Source of the DNA: an uncultured Clostridia bacterium
GTDB lineage: Bacteria > Bacillota > Clostridia > Christensenellales > UBA1242
DNA length: 33,499 nt
NCBI GenBank assembly: GCA_944345545.1
Contig: CALVMK010000055.1
Coordinates: forward strand, 1-33,499
Reading direction: 5' to 3'
Shown here: one piece after another, positions 8,194-22,231 of the stretch
Layout of the letters: the number at the start of each line of letters is the position of its first letter
Numbering within the stretch: the stretch's first letter is position 1
Notes under the pieces: model-generated
The model's database searches: none
Told to the model about the DNA's origin: nothing
What the model saw: only the letters and a program-made list of their open reading frames with translations
Position numbers and translations under genes: made by a program

Positions 8194-8585
8194 GTTTTTA
8201 TGTCATCTTATAAAAATGAAAATTTAGTATAAAAACCTATAAAAATAACAAAAAACATAAAAAAATCGACAAAAAATGTCAAATTTTCGCAATTTTTCTT
8301 AATTTTTGACAATTTATGAAAAATTATTTATTTATTATTTTCAAGATTTTAAATTTTTAAACTATTTGAATTTTGTTTATATCTTATAAAACTAGAAAGC
8401 TCTTTATAAAAGATTATAAGATAAAAAAAATAATTAAATATATTATACATTATCTATTTAAAAATTATATCAATGTTAAAAGAAAGTTTTGTAATATTTT
8501 GAAATATGAAAATCAATCTATATAGTATATATATATTACTATATATAGTATATACAAATAATATATGGAAAGTTAGAATAAATTG

Positions 8586-8614
8586 TTGTCAAAAATTTGT
8601 TATTATGATATAAT
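8586..8614 (+). promoter_or_regulatory. sigma-A promoter of parA-parB
   Basis: TTGTCA-17 nt-TATAAT with extended TG. Confidence 0.75.
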
Positions 8615-8648
8615 CTTGATATTAAAAATATTTATATATGGAGAAATT

Positions 8649-9467
8649 ATGGGAAAAATTATAGCTTTTGCTAATCAAAAAGGCGGAGTTGGAAAAACAA
8701 CAACATGTATAAATTTGGCTGCAAATGTTGCTTTGATGGGAAAAAGAGTTTTGATTGTTGATATGGACCCACAAGGAAATGCAACTAGCGGAGTTGGAAT
8801 TGAAAAAAATTCTCAATTAAAAACAATTTATAATGTTATAGATGGAGATTGTTCTGTAAAAGAAGTTATTTTAGAAACAATGATTCCAAACTTAGATATA
8901 ATTCCAGCAACAGTAGATTTAGCAGGTGCTGAAATTGATTTAGTTCAAATGAGTTCTAGAGAAAAAATTGTTAAAAACATATTATCTCGTATAATAACTA
9001 ACTATAATTACATAATGATTGATTGTCCACCATCTTTAGGTCTTCTCACCGTTAATGCTTTAACTGCATCAAATAGTATAATAATTCCTATACAATGTGA
9101 ATTTTTTGCTCTGGAAGGATTAAGTCAATTAATGAACACTGTAAGGCTTGTAAAGCATCACTTAAATGCTGAATTAGACATTGAAGGTGTTATATTAACA
9201 ATGAAAGATAAACGTTCTAATTTGGTTGCTGAAGTTAGTCAAGAAATTATGAAGTTTTTTGGTAAAAAAGTATATAACACATACATTCCAAGAAATATAA
9301 GATTAGCTGAAGCTCCAAGTCATGGAAAACCAATCTTACTTTATGATATAGCCTCTAAAGGAGCTGAAGCATATTTAACTCTTGCAGAAGAATTCCTTGA
9401 AAGAAATAAAGATAGTTATAAAAAAATAACTAAACATACAAAATTCAAATTAAGGAGTGATAATTAA
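8649..9467 (+). CDS. parA: ParA/Soj chromosome partitioning ATPase (start moved to ATG 8649)
   Basis: NQKGGVGKTTT deviant Walker A, DMDPQGNAT, IDCPPSLG, QCEFFALEG, IPRNIRLAEAPSHG. GGAG Shine-Dalgarno at 8640-8643; the track's TTG start lies in the promoter region. Confidence 0.97.
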   Translation: MGKIIAFANQKGGVGKTTTCINLAANVALMGKRVLIVDMDPQGNATSGVGIEKNSQLKTIYNVIDGDCSVKEVILETMIPNLDIIPATVDLAGAEIDLVQMSSREKIVKNILSRIITNYNYIMIDCPPSLGLLTVNALTASNSIIIPIQCEFFALEGLSQLMNTVRLVKHHLNAELDIEGVILTMKDKRSNLVAEVSQEIMKFFGKKVYNTYIPRNIRLAEAPSHGKPILLYDIASKGAEAYLTLAEEFLERNKDSYKKITKHTKFKLRSDN

Positions 9468-9469
9468 AA

Positions 9470-10408
9470 ATGAAAAAAGGTTTAGGAAAAGGTTTAGAAG
9501 CTTTGTTTTCTGTTTATGATGAAGAAGTAGAAAAAGAAGAAAAAACCACAGGAAACAATGACAAATCTGTGAATTTTGATAAAGATGGTGTTTTAGAAAT
9601 ATCTATAAATGATATTCATCCAAATCCAAATCAACCAAGAAAGAATTTTGACCAATCGGCATTAGAAGAACTTGCTCAAAGTATTAAAAATCATGGAATT
9701 ATTCAACCATTAGTAGTAAATAAAGAAGACAATGGTTACATGATTATAGCTGGTGAAAGAAGATGGAGAGCTTCTAAAATTGCAGGTTTAGAATATGTTC
9801 CTTGTATTGTTAAAAATTACACAGAAAAGCAAATAAAAGAAATAGCTTTAATAGAAAACTTACAAAGAGAAGATTTAAACCCTGTTGAAGCTGCAAAAGC
9901 AATTAAACAATTAATGGACGAATATAATTTTACTCAAGAAGTTGTTGCTGACAGAATTGGAAAAAGCAGACCAAATGTTACTAACCTACTACGTTTATTA
10001 TCTTTATACCCAGACGTTCTTAAACTTGTTGGAAACGGAAGATTATCTGCTGGACATGCAAGATGTTTAGTTGTTGTGTCAGACTACACTGCCCAACTCA
10101 AGTTTGCAAACATGGCATGTGATAATAAAATGTCTGTTAGAGATTTAGAAAAAACTGTTAAGAACTATTTGAATCCAAAAAAACTTTCAAATCAAAAAAG
10201 TGAACAAAGTGTTGAATTAAAAGAACTTGTAAATGAAATGCAAAGAGTGTTTTCTACAAAAGTTTCTGTAATCGGTAATGATAAAAAAGGAAGAATTTAT
10301 ATAGATTATTATTCTCGTGATGATTTGGATAGAATTGCTGAATTAATAGAATTAGCAAAAACAAAAACGTTGACATTAAAAAATCTTAAAGACATAAATA
10401 AAAGATAA
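9470..10408 (+). CDS. parB: ParB/Spo0J CTPase
   Basis: KKGLGKGLEAL ParA-stimulating peptide, NPNQPRKNF, AGERRWRA CTP motif, ENLQREDLN, HTH GKSRPNVTNLLRLL. Confidence 0.97.
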   Translation: MKKGLGKGLEALFSVYDEEVEKEEKTTGNNDKSVNFDKDGVLEISINDIHPNPNQPRKNFDQSALEELAQSIKNHGIIQPLVVNKEDNGYMIIAGERRWRASKIAGLEYVPCIVKNYTEKQIKEIALIENLQREDLNPVEAAKAIKQLMDEYNFTQEVVADRIGKSRPNVTNLLRLLSLYPDVLKLVGNGRLSAGHARCLVVVSDYTAQLKFANMACDNKMSVRDLEKTVKNYLNPKKLSNQKSEQSVELKELVNEMQRVFSTKVSVIGNDKKGRIYIDYYSRDDLDRIAELIELAKTKTLTLKNLKDINKR

Positions 10409-10453: not shown

Positions 10454-10479
10454 AAACCCTTTATTTTAAAGGGTTTTTT
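10454..10479 (+). terminator. intrinsic terminator after parB
   Basis: AAACCCTTTA-TTT-TAAAGGGTTT followed by T residues. Confidence 0.7.
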
Positions 10480-10482
10480 CAA

Positions 10483-10498
10483 TGTTTCACGTGAAACA
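10483..10498. other. parS site (perfect)
   Basis: TGTTTCACGTGAAACA palindrome, extending to 20 bp (10481-10500). Confidence 0.95.
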
Positions 10499-10559
10499 TT
10501 ATATTAAAACTTTAATTTTTAGCTATAAAATTTTCTTTTTATAATAATAAATTATTATA

Positions 10560-10575
10560 TGTTTCACGTGAAAAA
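10560..10575. other. parS site (one mismatch)
   Basis: TGTTTCACGTGAAAAA, 77 bp from the first site. Confidence 0.85.
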
Positions 10576-10872
10576 TTAGTATTAAAAATAATCAAAATAT
10601 TTAGTATATAATAGCTAAACAAAAAGTTATTATAAGAATTTAATTGTTTTTTTATAATAGTGTATAACACATAATCTATTAAAAGGTGTTATATAATATA
10701 AAAGAAATATAACAATAAATATATATGAAATAAATATAAAATGCCTTTGTTTTAGTAATAAAAAAATGTTGTATTATTCCCCTATCAAAAGTTTTATGTG
10801 GTAAAATTAAAAATTTTATGTTATTAAAAATATTTAAGAATTAAAACAAAAATTTTATCAAACTAAAAATCT

Positions 10873-17165: not shown

Positions 17166-19163
17166 ATGTTAAATGAAAGCGAATTAAATGAAGAAAAAAA
17201 ATATTTGCAAAAAACTTTTGAAAGACTTAATTACAAAATTGATGTTTTAAATCAAACCTTGGAAAATTACAATTTTAGAACTCATGAACTTTCTAAGTTT
17301 ATTGCAGAGAATTTTTATGATATGGACGCTCAAGAAGCAGCTGTTCAAAGAAATTTGTTAGACAACTTAAATTTAGAGAAGGCGGGCGTTGAGCACGCCC
17401 TCTTTAAATGTGAAAAACAAGCACAAAAGCCTTATTTTGGTAGAATTGATTTTGTTGAAAATGGGGATAGTGTTTGTGAAAGTTGTTATATTGGAATTTC
17501 ATATTTAGAAAACCCAGATGGTTTTCCTTTTGTTATAGATTGGCGTGCTCCTATTTCTAGTTTATATTACGACTACGAATTGGGTAAGGCTTCATATTCA
17601 GCCCCTGATGGAACAATTAATGGTGAAATTTTATTAAAAAGACAATATAAAATAGAAGGAGAAAAACTTGTTTTTGCTTTTGATAGTTCTGTTACTATTA
17701 ATGATGAAATTTTGCAAGATGCACTTGGACAAAATTCTGGCTCTAAAATGAAACAAATAGTTTCTACCATACAAAAAGAACAAAATAAAATTATTAGAAG
17801 CAATGATTTTGAAAATATTCTTGTTCAAGGTATTGCAGGCTCTGGTAAAACTTCTATTGCACTTCATAGAATTGCTTATTTACTCTATAAAAACAAATTA
17901 TCATCTAAAGATATTGTGATTATTTCTCCAAGTTCGCTTTTTTCAGATTATATATCTGATGTTTTACCAGAACTTGGTGAACAAAATGTTTATGCAACAA
18001 CGTTTGAAGAAATAGCTAAGGAAGAATTAGATGGCATTTTAGATTTTGAAAGCAGATTAGATATGCTTGAAAGTTTGTTAGCTGGTAATTTTGAACGTGC
18101 TAAAGAAGTTAATTATAAGGAAAGCCCTGAGTTTTTTCAAAGTTTAAAAACATTTTTAAATAGTTTTGTAGATATAAATTTTGAAGCCAAAGATATCAAT
18201 TTGGGTGATAAAAAAATAAAGGCTGATATTATTAATAATCTTTATAACGAAAGATATAAATCAAAAAAACCATCTGTTAGAATTGAATGGATAGCAGATT
18301 ATGTTATTGACCAACTTGGTGCAGAAAACAAGAATGTTGATGCTATTAGTTCTAGAATTAAAAAAGTTCTTTTAGGAATGTTTAGAATTAACAACATTAC
18401 TGAAATATATATAACCTTTTTAAAAATGATTGGAATGAAAGATAACATCTTTATTAGTAAAAAAACTTTACGATTTGAAGATGTTGCTCCAATTCTTTAT
18501 ATTAAAGATTATCTTTTAGGAACTAATCAATACAAGGAGTTTAAGTTTGCTGTAATTGATGAAATGCAAGATTATAGTGAAATTGCTTTAGATTTGATTT
18601 CTAAAAGATATCCATGTCCAAAAACTATTTTAGGAGATATTTATCAAAGCGTTGAAAGAATTTTAAATCATGCTTATTTAGATAATCTTTGTAAACTTTT
18701 AAATGATGCAAAACTTGTAAAACTTGCAAAAACTTATCGTTCAACAAAAGAGATTACTGAATATTCTCAAAATCTTATTGGTCTAAGTGGAGCAATTAAT
18801 TTTGAACGTCATGGTGATAAGGTTAAGGTTATAAAAAGTCAAAATTTATTAGAAGAACTTAAAACAGAAATCCAAGATTGTAAAGGTAAAGCTTTTAAAC
18901 ACATTGCTATTATAACTCCAACTATGAAAGAAGCAGAAGAACTTTATATAAATCATCCTGAATTAGAAAACGCTGTTTTAATTTCAGATAATACAAGTGA
19001 ACTTCCAGATGGTGTTATTATATTGTCTTCTCTTTTAAGTAAAGGGCTTGAGTTCGATGCGGTTATTTCAGTTAGAAAAAAACCTGAAAACTATTTGGAA
19101 AAGAATGCAGATTACATTGCTTCAACTAGGGCTCTTCACAAGCTTTGTGTTATTGAAGTGTAG
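17166..19163 (+). CDS. helD: HelD-family SF1 helicase-like RNA polymerase recycling ATPase
   Basis: PYFGRIDF, YIG, DWRAPIS, IVSTIQKEQN, QGIAGSGKTSIALHRIAYLLY, VLPELGE, DEMQD, YRST, KGLEFD, TRALH. Confidence 0.88.
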   Translation: MLNESELNEEKKYLQKTFERLNYKIDVLNQTLENYNFRTHELSKFIAENFYDMDAQEAAVQRNLLDNLNLEKAGVEHALFKCEKQAQKPYFGRIDFVENGDSVCESCYIGISYLENPDGFPFVIDWRAPISSLYYDYELGKASYSAPDGTINGEILLKRQYKIEGEKLVFAFDSSVTINDEILQDALGQNSGSKMKQIVSTIQKEQNKIIRSNDFENILVQGIAGSGKTSIALHRIAYLLYKNKLSSKDIVIISPSSLFSDYISDVLPELGEQNVYATTFEEIAKEELDGILDFESRLDMLESLLAGNFERAKEVNYKESPEFFQSLKTFLNSFVDINFEAKDINLGDKKIKADIINNLYNERYKSKKPSVRIEWIADYVIDQLGAENKNVDAISSRIKKVLLGMFRINNITEIYITFLKMIGMKDNIFISKKTLRFEDVAPILYIKDYLLGTNQYKEFKFAVIDEMQDYSEIALDLISKRYPCPKTILGDIYQSVERILNHAYLDNLCKLLNDAKLVKLAKTYRSTKEITEYSQNLIGLSGAINFERHGDKVKVIKSQNLLEELKTEIQDCKGKAFKHIAIITPTMKEAEELYINHPELENAVLISDNTSELPDGVIILSSLLSKGLEFDAVISVRKKPENYLEKNADYIASTRALHKLCVIEV

Positions 19164-19185
19164 TTTAAGTTTTTGTGTTGTTAAA

Positions 19186-19283
19186 CTGCTTTAATGACCC
19201 TTTGCGAGTTTGGGCTATGCCAAAAAAAAGTGCTTTGCACTTTTAGTGCGAATTATTCGCACACTCGCAAAGGGTTAAGGCAG
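19186..19283 (+). ncRNA. unidentified cloverleaf-like structured element (RNA leader, ncRNA or repeat)
   Basis: Long outer stem encloses three adjacent triloop hairpins; G:U pairs favour the plus strand. See findings. Confidence 0.5.
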
Positions 19284-19315
19284 AACAAACTGAACATTTT
19301 TAAAAGGAGTGTTGT

Positions 19316-20668
19316 ATGACATACGATTATGCTGTTATTGGTGGTGGAATTATAGGCACTGCGATATTCAATAAAATTATAAGAAAAAATAAATCTTGCA
19401 TTTTAATAGAGCGAGAGTTAGATATTGCCACAGGTGCAACAAAGGCCAATAGTGGACTTGTTCACGCAGGCTTTGATGCTGAAACTGGGTCATTAAAGGC
19501 AAAATTTAATGTAAGAGGCAATTATTTAATAGAAGAATTAGCAAAAGAGTTAAACATACCTTTTAAAAGAACAGGAGCATTAGTTGTTGGAAATGATTTA
19601 GAAAAACTTAATAATTTAAAAACGCGTGGTGAAAACAACGGAGTAAAAGAATTAGAAATAATAAATAGAGATAAGTTAAAAGAACTTGTTCCAAACTTAA
19701 AAGAAGATATAAAATATGCTTTATATGCAAAAACTGCTGGAGTCATTTCACCTTACATATTTGCAATAGCATTAGCAGAAGAAGGTGTTATAAATGGCGG
19801 AGATTTTAAACTTGGTTTTGAAATAACTAATATTGAAGAAGAAAAAAATATATTTAAAATTTATTCTAAAGATAACATAATTGAAGCCAAAAAAGTCATA
19901 AACTGTGCAGGTGCAGGATTTAATGAGATTTCAAAATTTTTGAAAGTGGAAGAATATCCAATAAAATTTAGAAGAGGAGAATATATTGTTTTAGATAAAT
20001 CCGAATTTGTTAAATTGTCGATATTCCCTTTGCCCACAAACTTAGGAAAAGGTATTCTTGCAACCCCTACAATAGATGGAAACATTTTGTTAGGTCCAAC
20101 GGCAGAAGATATTGAAGACTATAACACAGAAACAACAACAGAAGGTATTGATAAAATTTTAGGTTATATAAATTCAACATTTGATAATGTTCCGTTAAAT
20201 AAAACTATAAGACAATTTTCTGGCATAAGGGTTTCATGTGGAGAAGATTTTGTTGTAGAAAAAAGCAAAAAAAATCAAAATGTTGTTCTAGTTGCAGGAA
20301 TTAATTCTCCTGGTTTAAGTTCAGCTCCTGCTATTGCAGAATTTGTTGTAGAAGAACTTTTTGAAGAAAAAGCTCAAGATAAAATAATGAAAAGAAGAAG
20401 TCCGTATTTTACTGAAAATGCTGGAAAGATAATTTGCAGATGTGAAAAAATAGGAGAAAATGAAATTATTAATGCGATAAATGCACCAATCCCTGCAATA
20501 ACTGTTGATGCTATTAAAAGAAGAGTAAGGGCAGGAATGGGAAGGTGCCAAGGTGGACAGTGCATGCTTGAAGTTTGCAAGCTTATAGCAAGAAATAAAG
20601 GATTAAAACTTGAAGATATTAAAAAAGAAAGCAAAAATAGCTATATCATGTTTAAGGGGGAAAATTAA
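19316..20668 (+). CDS. FAD-dependent oxidoreductase, GlpA/LhgO-like, with C-terminal BFD-like [2Fe-2S] domain
   Basis: VIGGGIIG, GATKANSGLVHAGFD, AGINSPGLSSAPAI, CRCE...IKRRVRAGMGRCQGGQC. Confidence 0.85.
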   Translation: MTYDYAVIGGGIIGTAIFNKIIRKNKSCILIERELDIATGATKANSGLVHAGFDAETGSLKAKFNVRGNYLIEELAKELNIPFKRTGALVVGNDLEKLNNLKTRGENNGVKELEIINRDKLKELVPNLKEDIKYALYAKTAGVISPYIFAIALAEEGVINGGDFKLGFEITNIEEEKNIFKIYSKDNIIEAKKVINCAGAGFNEISKFLKVEEYPIKFRRGEYIVLDKSEFVKLSIFPLPTNLGKGILATPTIDGNILLGPTAEDIEDYNTETTTEGIDKILGYINSTFDNVPLNKTIRQFSGIRVSCGEDFVVEKSKKNQNVVLVAGINSPGLSSAPAIAEFVVEELFEEKAQDKIMKRRSPYFTENAGKIICRCEKIGENEIINAINAPIPAITVDAIKRRVRAGMGRCQGGQCMLEVCKLIARNKGLKLEDIKKESKNSYIMFKGEN

Positions 20669-21886
20669 ATGAAAACAGATGTAGTGGTTATAGGCGGTGG
20701 ACCTTCTGGAATGTCGGCAGCTTTAAAGGCAAGTGAACAAGGTGCAAAAGTTCTTTTAGTTGATGTTGAATCAAGGTTAGGTGGAATATTAAATCAATGT
20801 ATTCATAACGGCTTTGGCTTAAAGCATTTTAAAGAAGAATTAACTGGACCTGAATATGCTAATAGATTGGCTAATGAAGTTTATAAAGATAAAAACATTG
20901 AAGTAAAACTTAACAGTTATGTAAACTATATTGACAAAAATAAAGTGTTTGTTTTAACAGAAAAGGGACAAGAAATTATTGAATGTTCTTCAATTATACT
21001 ATCTGCTGGGGCTAGAGAAAGGACAAGCGGTGAAATATATTTAAAAGGCAAAAGGTTAGCAGGAGTTTACACAGCAGGAACAGCACAAAAAATGGTTAAC
21101 TTTTATGGAAAACTACCTGGAAAAAAGATAGTTATTCTTGGAAGTGGAGATATAGGTTTAATTATGGCTAGACGAATGACGCTAGAAGGTGCTGAAGTAA
21201 AACTTGTATTAGAAATAATGGGACATTCATCTGGACTAAGAAGAAATATAAGGCAATGTATTGAAGATTTTAATATTCCCCTTTTGTTTAATCACACAAT
21301 AACAAAAGTTGTTGGAGATGAAAGAGTATGTGGAGTATATTACGCAGAAGTTGATGAAAATAAAAAACCCAAGTTAGAGACGGAAAAATATATAGATTGT
21401 GATTGTGTTTTACTTTCGGTTGGACTAATTCCTGAAAATACTTTGCTTCCAAAACAAACATTAAGAGAAAAATTTGTTGTAGTTGATGATGAAAGACAAA
21501 CAAGCGTAGATGGTATTTTTATTTGCGGAAATGTTCTTCACATTCACGATTTAGCGGATAATGCTACTGAAGAAGGAGAAATCGCAGGAAAGTTTGCTGG
21601 ATTATATGCATTAAATAAACTAAAAAAATATGTTAAAGTTATCATAAACTTTTCTAATAAAATATCTTATTGTATGCCAAAACTCGTTAATAAAAAAACT
21701 GAAGGAAAATTCACTATTTATATGCGAGCAAACAACAATTTTATTAAAAAGTTTATAACAGTAAAAAGTGGAGATAACATTATTGCAAAAAAGTTTTGTG
21801 TTGGAATAACAACAGGAGAAATGCAAGAAATAGAAGTTGAATACTCAAAGGTTAATGGCGACCTTTACGTTGATATTGAGGGGTAA
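20669..21886 (+). CDS. pyridine nucleotide-disulfide oxidoreductase (NAD(P)/FAD-binding)
   Basis: IGGGPSG, LGGILNQCIHNGFG..ELTGPEYA, ILGSGDIGLIMARR, GNVLHIHDLAD. Confidence 0.85.
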   Translation: MKTDVVVIGGGPSGMSAALKASEQGAKVLLVDVESRLGGILNQCIHNGFGLKHFKEELTGPEYANRLANEVYKDKNIEVKLNSYVNYIDKNKVFVLTEKGQEIIECSSIILSAGARERTSGEIYLKGKRLAGVYTAGTAQKMVNFYGKLPGKKIVILGSGDIGLIMARRMTLEGAEVKLVLEIMGHSSGLRRNIRQCIEDFNIPLLFNHTITKVVGDERVCGVYYAEVDENKKPKLETEKYIDCDCVLLSVGLIPENTLLPKQTLREKFVVVDDERQTSVDGIFICGNVLHIHDLADNATEEGEIAGKFAGLYALNKLKKYVKVIINFSNKISYCMPKLVNKKTEGKFTIYMRANNNFIKKFITVKSGDNIIAKKFCVGITTGEMQEIEVEYSKVNGDLYVDIEG

Positions 21887-21889
21887 GTT

Positions 21890-22231
21890 ATGGAAACAAT
21901 TTGCATATGTTGCCCAATAGGGTGCAGATTAAAAGTGGAAAAAATTGATGGAGAGATTGTTGTTACAGGCAATTCATGTCCAAGGGGCAAAGATTATGGA
22001 ATAAGTGAATTTACTTTTCCAAAAAGAGTTCTTACAACAAGTTTAGTTTTTCCTAATGTTACGTACACTTTAAAAACAACAACAGCTTTGCCAAAAGAAA
22101 GAGTTAAAGAAGCTTTAAAAGAGATTAAAAAAATTGGTTACAAAGAATGTAATATAGGCGACGTTTTAATAAAGAATATTATAAATAGTGATGCAGATGT
22201 TGTTGTTACAGGTAAAATAGAAAATGCTTAA
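21890..22231 (+). CDS. DUF1667-family CxxC metal-binding protein
   Basis: CICCPIGC...GNSCPRG...PKRVLTTS; usual third gene of this oxidoreductase cassette. Confidence 0.8.
   Translation: METICICCPIGCRLKVEKIDGEIVVTGNSCPRGKDYGISEFTFPKRVLTTSLVFPNVTYTLKTTTALPKERVKEALKEIKKIGYKECNIGDVLIKNIINSDADVVVTGKIENA

Follow-up and report, generated by a model that had tools for sequence, protein, structure and literature searches.

In the 33,499-nucleotide stretch of DNA analysed here (the window), from an uncultured Clostridia bacterium, the spacer that separates helD from an oxidoreductase cassette contains a compact element with the geometry of a cloverleaf. The helD stop codon lies 31 nt before the closing stem, and the downstream start codon follows 38 nt after the element. 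The features of the locus are as follows.

17166..19163, + strand: helD, RNA polymerase recycling motor (NF041464 above cut-off)
19186..19283, + strand: whole element, including a 6-bp outer extension (19186-19191 with 19278-19283)
19195..19209, + strand: closing stem, 5' arm (from sequence and fold)
19210..19223, + strand: arm 1, hairpin with one bulge and a marginal triloop (from sequence and RNA fold)
19226..19244, + strand: arm 2, perfect 8-bp hairpin with A/T base, G/C tip and 3-nt loop
19246..19262, + strand: arm 3, perfect 7-bp hairpin with 3-nt loop
19263..19277, + strand: closing stem, 3' arm (from sequence and fold)
19304..19309, + strand: Shine-Dalgarno-like hexamer of the next gene
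19316..22231, + strand: FAD oxidoreductase with BFD 2Fe-2S domain, Pyr_redox_2 protein and DUF1667 cassette

A sequence-only reading of the window had proposed the closing stem, its extension and three hairpins joined by linkers of 0-2 nt, and all of these positions agree with the sequence. Its description of every loop as a triloop holds cleanly for hairpins 2 and 3; the tip of hairpin 1 is a 6-nt loop in the MFE structure, and its triloop is therefore marginal. One G.T pair lies in the outer stem (19195-19209/19263-19277) and one in the extension (19186-19191/19278-19283). Folded as RNA, the element reaches -51.4 kcal/mol (z -8.37) and, folded as DNA, -33.7 (z -8.42), with none of 200 shuffles as stable in either case. 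It is indeed richer in GC than its surroundings (43% against 28% for the window), and its end at 19283 falls, as previously noted, about 20 nt before the Shine-Dalgarno hexamer that begins at 19304.

The same reading had seen neither a U tail nor tRNA hallmarks. A scan of 18900-19400 yields neither a terminator-like site nor a U-tract directly 3' of the stem, and promoter matches at chance level only; ARAGORN returns nothing on this contig, and the loops of the family described below are not of tRNA type. No Rfam family matches the whole window at the gathering threshold (best E 0.74 for 19100-19400), as the proposal of a novel element required; this search, which among the copies was confined to that of the window, included Clostridiales-1 (RF01699), a motif listed in PMC2864571. 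The downstream oxidoreductase cassette, which G3P-oxidase models match but below their cut-offs, is context only and is not tied to the element. Elsewhere in the window, just after the two genes at 8583-10408, lie two copies of a 16-bp palindrome (10475-10501 and 10552-10578) that resembles parS.

A family recognised by its shape

BLAST of the spacer against its own genome (G000, 0.97 Mb) yields the self-match only, and nhmmer yields one weak match, on contig C61 (E 0.0075), which folds to the same shape from different stem sequences and revealed a family. The BLASTN test suggested earlier, by which many copies would favour a repeat and a single copy a leader, returned a single copy although a dispersed family exists; it would mislead here, since only structure reveals the family. 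A scan that ignores sequence and looks for closed junctions of several hairpins gives 25 matches in G000, two of them a near-identical pair at contig ends, and 23 are compact once a tRNA-adjacent match on C28 and a loose one on C25 are dropped; covariance models added two degenerate copies to this set. The spacers of G000 hold 21 junctions versus none in each of 10 dinucleotide shuffles, and three block shuffles of the genome give 0, 0 and 1.

The architecture is a closing stem of 8-15 bp around exactly three short-looped hairpins. Two or four arms were also allowed, and three were found in 19/19 compact junctions of G000 and 17/17 of G001; folding every gene end without a seed adds only a tRNA and loose structures and upholds the three-arm result. 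About 20 unrelated genes in G000 have this fold 3' of them (gene names such as groEL, tyrS, gpmI, ackA, alaS, scfA and spoIIE are our own assignments, read off the protein sequences).

A set of 75 copies from six species, with transcript strand and internal/end labels assigned by hand, was assembled from 77 listed copies, two of which gave no junction (degenerate C53 and mis-centred L148). Median copy length is 84 nt. In the stems, 2,652 pairs are Watson-Crick and 26 are internal mismatches (99% Watson-Crick); the outer arms differ among sites except for short motifs, and median identity among paralogues is 54%. An A/T-tract hairpin stands beside a shared outer-arm motif in 50 of the 75, giving these copies a polarity that runs in either direction relative to transcription (first in 35, last in 15). 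The window copy is of the other type, without the A/T-tract arm.

Outside the source genome, covariance model R1 finds matches in five of six congeners (G001 and G003-G006, with G002 the exception), together with one borderline site among 54 other relatives and one across 150 genomes of the order. Model R2 matches G001, G004 and G006 and gives none in G002, G003 and G005; among 150 family genomes it is confined to the genus plus one borderline site. Weak matches outside the genus (G015, G081 and G137; E ~6e-4) form no compact junction on folding and were rejected. The structure-only scan yields three junctions in 179 kb of G003, none in 194 kb of G002 and none in 120-140 kb each of G010, G029 and G032. 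The source species is present in chicken-gut DNA sequencing runs; a search for RNA runs that contain it listed none.

Inheritance, stem evolution and inversion

The copies are inherited vertically: 52 of 63 have their best cross-species match at the same site. At sites with a junction in both species, a choice that favours conserved pairing and does not force identical letters, stem pairs changed far less often than four-fold-degenerate sites of the flanking genes. Between G003 and G005 the figures are 1/168 stem pairs (0.6%) versus 423/924 sites (46%), and between G001 and G004 45/275 (16%) versus 796/1910 (42%); a third comparison gives 96/363 (26%) versus 908/1774 (51%) and a fourth 115/329 (35%) versus 1134/1852 (61%). 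Loops change at rates between those of stems and four-fold-degenerate sites. If one arm were repaired from the other without bias, pairs should change roughly as fast as neutral sites; the stems are slow, and selection is therefore needed. The proposal of an undescribed structured element is supported for both structure and selection, and a part in transcription or processing would be putative.

The interior of the junction is inverted between uninverted flanks in 1/5, 1/8, 2/11 and 4/10 comparisons, or 8 of 34 that are not independent of one another. The sister genomes G003 and G005 show the cleanest such flip, at spoIIE; at gpmI in the same pair a single loop is inverted. Inversions of this kind, together with block compensations, are ascribed in a section of PMC8794818 to replication template switching. 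The matches listed from four DNA runs on contig C72 include no inversion joint, and one contig from these runs bridges the scfA copy with orientation unchanged. At the groEL copy a G.T pair reads as G-C in 4/4 runs. Four other DNA runs gave no coverage of the element in the window. Alignment A5 holds three reverse-complement rows, and its covariation result is therefore not used as evidence.

Occupancy is patchy at several sites. G001 and G004 carry a copy where the spacer of G000 is 8 nt, and G000 carries one at a site that is empty in G001; sites of patchy presence include helD, yitT and C70:17613. Copies at C16:6456-6538 of G000 and L163:2606-2686 (G006) are 82% identical at different genomic sites and are the only candidate case of a move or a new copy. 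The distance from stop codon to copy varies among orthologues from -1 to 110 nt, and a mechanism that needs fixed spacing from the stop codon was rejected on this ground.

At the helD site itself, the oxidoreductase is present in 7/7 genus genomes and the cloverleaf occupies the orthologous spacer in G000 and G001 only. That spacer is 15-20 nt long in G003, G004 and G005 and AT-rich without the fold in G006; its flanks differ in G002. The G001 copy has its outer stem in common with G000, lacks the outer 6-bp extension, and has an interior that aligns better when reversed (29 vs 17). On the order of gain and loss at this site, two single-gene trees disagree or lack resolution beyond G003+G005.

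Genomic context and pair chemistry

The copies are found downstream of a stop codon or a promoter, and about a third are operon-internal. Divergent spacers hold 1 copy in 79 versus 17 in 264 for other spacers (p=0.085; this and every other p-value given here overstates the evidence, because neither the copies of one species nor those of different species are independent of each other); the lone divergent-spacer copy is a mis-call, due to a short gene upstream that the annotation misses. The two strands fold about equally well; the sense-strand fold is the lower in 47 copies versus 27. RNase III is above cut-off in G000.

A T-run follows the stem in 20/75 copies and the mirror A-run precedes it in 18/75; since the T-run is no commoner than its mirror, the family is not a class of terminators. 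At five sites (groEL, C16, gpmI, ackA and scfA) the position is taken in other species by a plain hairpin that resembles a terminator. The idea that a cloverleaf replaces a terminator was set aside as anecdotal, separate terminators not being depleted beside cloverleaves (9/49 versus a background of 28/244).

G.T pairs make up 7 of ~2,680 pairs in cloverleaves versus 47 of ~2,210 in a control of 168 terminator hairpins, and are thus about eight-fold rarer (p 2e-10). In the control hairpins the G.T:A.C ratio of 47:17 is an RNA signature; in cloverleaf helices it is 7:3 (p=0.34), which fits RNA or DNA, and at the outer end of the stems 19:7 (p=0.23 against flank composition). Loops of 3-4 nt account for 208 of 225, with 142 triloops, 103 of them closed by C-G. 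The loops are strand-symmetric (AAA 32/TTT 25, GAA 14/TTC 12), and neither GNRA loops (4 sense vs 1 antisense) nor cUUCGg (2 vs 2) show a bias. GNA-type loops number 40, on either strand; such triloops are described in part of PMC13037366 as unusually stable in DNA and as occurring at phage and plasmid priming sites. A 3' CCA is found in 1/75 copies, and tRNA-type loops are absent. A near-consensus promoter immediately precedes two copies in G000 and one in G004; a T-rich run follows the two in G000.

Comparison with known elements

The family resembles REP elements and SRPS stem-loops and does not pass as a REP/RAYT system, an SRM repeat, a terminator, a tRNA-like element or a GlpP leader. 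No description of its four-way-junction architecture was found in openly accessible main texts of the literature. REP/BIME/REPIN elements with their RAYT (TnpAREP), as presented in a portion of PMC6006769, are likewise extragenic GC-rich palindromes in many copies, situated just downstream of genes, in either orientation and restricted to lineages. They are hairpins or doublets of 20-40 nt in that account, whereas the present family is one closed three-armed junction. Unlike REPs, its copies are ~54% alike, the foot tetranucleotide is seen in 3/75, no Y1 transposase is found, and orthologous sites show flips in place.

The suggestion of a REP- or MITE-like repeat stands in part. The dispersed family exists, with 23 compact copies of an extragenic palindrome in G000; its sequences are divergent, are mostly fixed at orthologous sites and come with no REP tag, RAYT or SRM. 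GTAG, GTGG or CGTC occurs within 6 nt of the foot, on either strand, in just 3/75 copies. The copies also lack the high identity of REPs, BLAST returning a single copy and paralogues having a median of 54%, and they show no sign of the current mobility of a MITE, with 52/63 best matched at the same site and one relocation candidate. As to the terminal inverted repeats and target-site duplication of a MITE, the outer arms have only short motifs in common, and filled sites have diverged strongly from empty ones. The RAYT/IS200-type transposase sought on the advice of the sequence-only reading (PF01797) is found in 0/6 genomes searched (76-98% complete, all but G002), a result that loss of a transposase after the spread could also produce.

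Ssn nucleases with their SRM/NTS repeats (described in a portion of PMC11893778) are alike in being structured intergenic repeats, and Ssn-like genes occur in two congeners: Ssn-type GIY-YIG genes flanked by GTC-tagged hairpins are present in G001 (3) and G004 (2). Unlike SRM/NTS repeats, 0/75 cloverleaves carry the SRM pattern or tag. The published pattern, which is insensitive here (1 match in G001), and the GTC tag that occurs 72 times in G001 each gave 0/75. An Ssn nuclease as mobiliser was rejected, the GTC tag being absent from cloverleaves; with the query used here, no Ssn homologue was found in G000, G003, G005 or G006. The stand-alone Ssn-like GIY-YIG genes lie on L223, L238 and L239 (G001), L224 and L237 (G004) and L225-L228 (other genera), and the published SRM pattern misses almost all GTC-tagged hairpins beside such genes in low-GC gut bacteria.

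G001 also contains a larger modular palindromic repeat at ~40 sites (for example L105:10150-10420 and L120:2634-2775), with one match in G000. It is recently expanded, folds in part as long-armed three-hairpin junctions, adjoins Ssn-type genes and lies within or over a cloverleaf at three sites.

SRPS stem-loops of cellulolytic Clostridia, for which an excerpt of PMC4423207 proposes a role in differential mRNA stability, are likewise very stable and placed between or after cistrons; they are site-specific stem-loops with measured processing, whereas the cloverleaves are a homologous junction family known from sequence. RNA hairpins maintained by template switching, as covered in part of PMC8794818, have similarly perfect stems, multi-base compensation and loop inversions; unlike them, the present family is dispersed and inverts whole three-hairpin interiors of ~55-65 nt. 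Rho-independent terminators, finally, are alike in lying 3' of stop codons, and the middle arm of the cloverleaf often has their A-tract/GC-stem/T-tract form; unlike them, cloverleaves have no consistent U-tract and far fewer mismatches and G.U pairs.

Discussion

Taking the fold, the three-armed family, its vertical inheritance, the slow stems and the flips as established, we tentatively favour, at a probability of roughly 45%, a domesticated palindromic repeat whose orientation-independent junction would serve as a likely barrier at the 3' ends of mRNAs or between cistrons. The element would have spread long ago, when a common ancestral copy multiplied in a burst, as suggested by the outer-arm motif and A/T-tract arm that about two thirds of copies share and by one copy that occurs at different sites in two species. 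Replication template switching between inverted arms would then yield both the flips and the multi-base compensatory changes, while selection would keep about -40 to -60 kcal/mol of pairing as four short helices, a split that would avoid offering RNase III one long duplex. The resulting transcript barrier, defined by shape only, may slow exonucleolytic decay between or after genes; in the window, the segments made more stable would be those of helD or oxidoreductase mRNA, and G3P would not be sensed. Site-by-site selection suits a cis effect on neighbouring mRNA. Against an mRNA barrier, the scarcity of G.T pairs and the triloop chemistry look DNA-like, and neither exactly three arms nor a conserved A/T-tract arm is obviously needed.

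The main competitor, which we judge less probable, is that the selected structure may be DNA, each strand, as ssDNA or as an extruded branched cruciform, folding to a Holliday-junction-like junction to which a nucleoid protein, a topoisomerase or a replication protein would bind, a role already suggested for REP/BIME. Nearly equal folding of both strands, G.T pairs eight-fold rarer than in terminators, C-G-closed triloops with 40 loops of the GNA type (PMC13037366, in the part cited above), tolerance of orientation flips and strictly three arms all fit such a structure. HU, according to a passage of PMC4550694, binds both cruciforms and REP-derived RNA. SbcD is not found in 7/7 genus genomes, but it is above cut-off in only 10/61 relatives, most of which are without the element; SbcD loss as the cause was rejected, being not genus-specific and extending to most relatives. 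With ~23 redundant sites in each Mb, strong site-by-site selection would not readily be expected; the near-absence of copies from divergent spacers and the slight sense-strand tilt sit better with a transcript, and none of the searches identified a binding protein. A wider version, in which a self-inverting, mismatch-free junction present on both strands at about two dozen loci would constitute a new chromosomal element of shape only, selected, bound by a junction protein and with independent counterparts in unrelated bacteria, we likewise hold to be doubtful.

It is improbable that the family is a neutral relic of a selfish REP/MITE-type repeat, in which template-switch self-repair keeps the stems perfect and the host gains nothing. 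The narrow distribution, patchy presence at helD, yitT and C70:17613, and the 82% identical pair at non-orthologous sites would suit a relic, as would a sister genome in which Ssn-type genes accompany an expanding larger repeat that shares the A/T-tract hairpin tip. The rate of change in stems, however, is 2 to 75 times lower than at synonymous sites, whereas unbiased self-repair would probably leave it near neutral; two- or four-armed intermediates are absent, and the six genomes searched for a Y1 transposase have none.

Still less probable are tRNA-sized structured RNAs, excised or separately transcribed, that act in trans as a protein sponge or nucleoid RNA. The 84-nt median length and the three promoter-proximal copies (the G000 pair with its T-rich run and the one in G004) point that way, but most copies have no promoter, CCA (1/75) and tRNA-type loops are as good as absent, and a flip changes the RNA sequence and yet is tolerated.

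The sequence-only reading had also proposed a leader for the oxidoreductase cassette, by analogy with GlpP-controlled leaders. Such a leader, whether under the control of GlpP or of a ligand, would suit an element 38 nt before the start codon but is very improbable indeed, given a cloverleaf in 2/7 orthologous spacers with interiors apparently inverted between the two, PF04309 (the glpP check) in 0/5 genomes searched, unrelated genes adjoining the same fold, and no conserved unpaired residues.

What is new here are the interior flips, the stem-rate test and the controls. BLAST and Rfam miss this selected multi-copy element because only its geometry is conserved, and small gut-bacterial genomes may thus have spacers that hide structured families from sequence-based repeat finders. 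If the mRNA barrier we favour is correct, its function survives a back-to-front interior; the family would offer a natural system for the origin and persistence of perfect multi-helix structures through template switching plus selection, and a compact, testable design for an mRNA barrier or DNA junction that works in either orientation.

Other observations

L125:8071-8306 (G001:C17) holds two tandem cloverleaves with nearly the same outer stems and different arms. In G000, C28:1-700 is a tRNA-Lys region in which the 5' half of the tRNA is partly duplicated and several complex palindromes occur.

At least 10 near-consensus sigma-70 promoters of G000 contain a run of 8 or 9 G in the spacer: C5:15329, C18:22346, C21 (2 sites), C25:31, C26:5441, C29:22572, C33:16454, C44:~290 and C61:11137; another is at L167:1241-1270 (G004). 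Often a hairpin and T-run or a cloverleaf follows directly, and several lie at contig ends. The length of the G-run varies among these promoters, as it does in slipped-strand phase-variable promoters.
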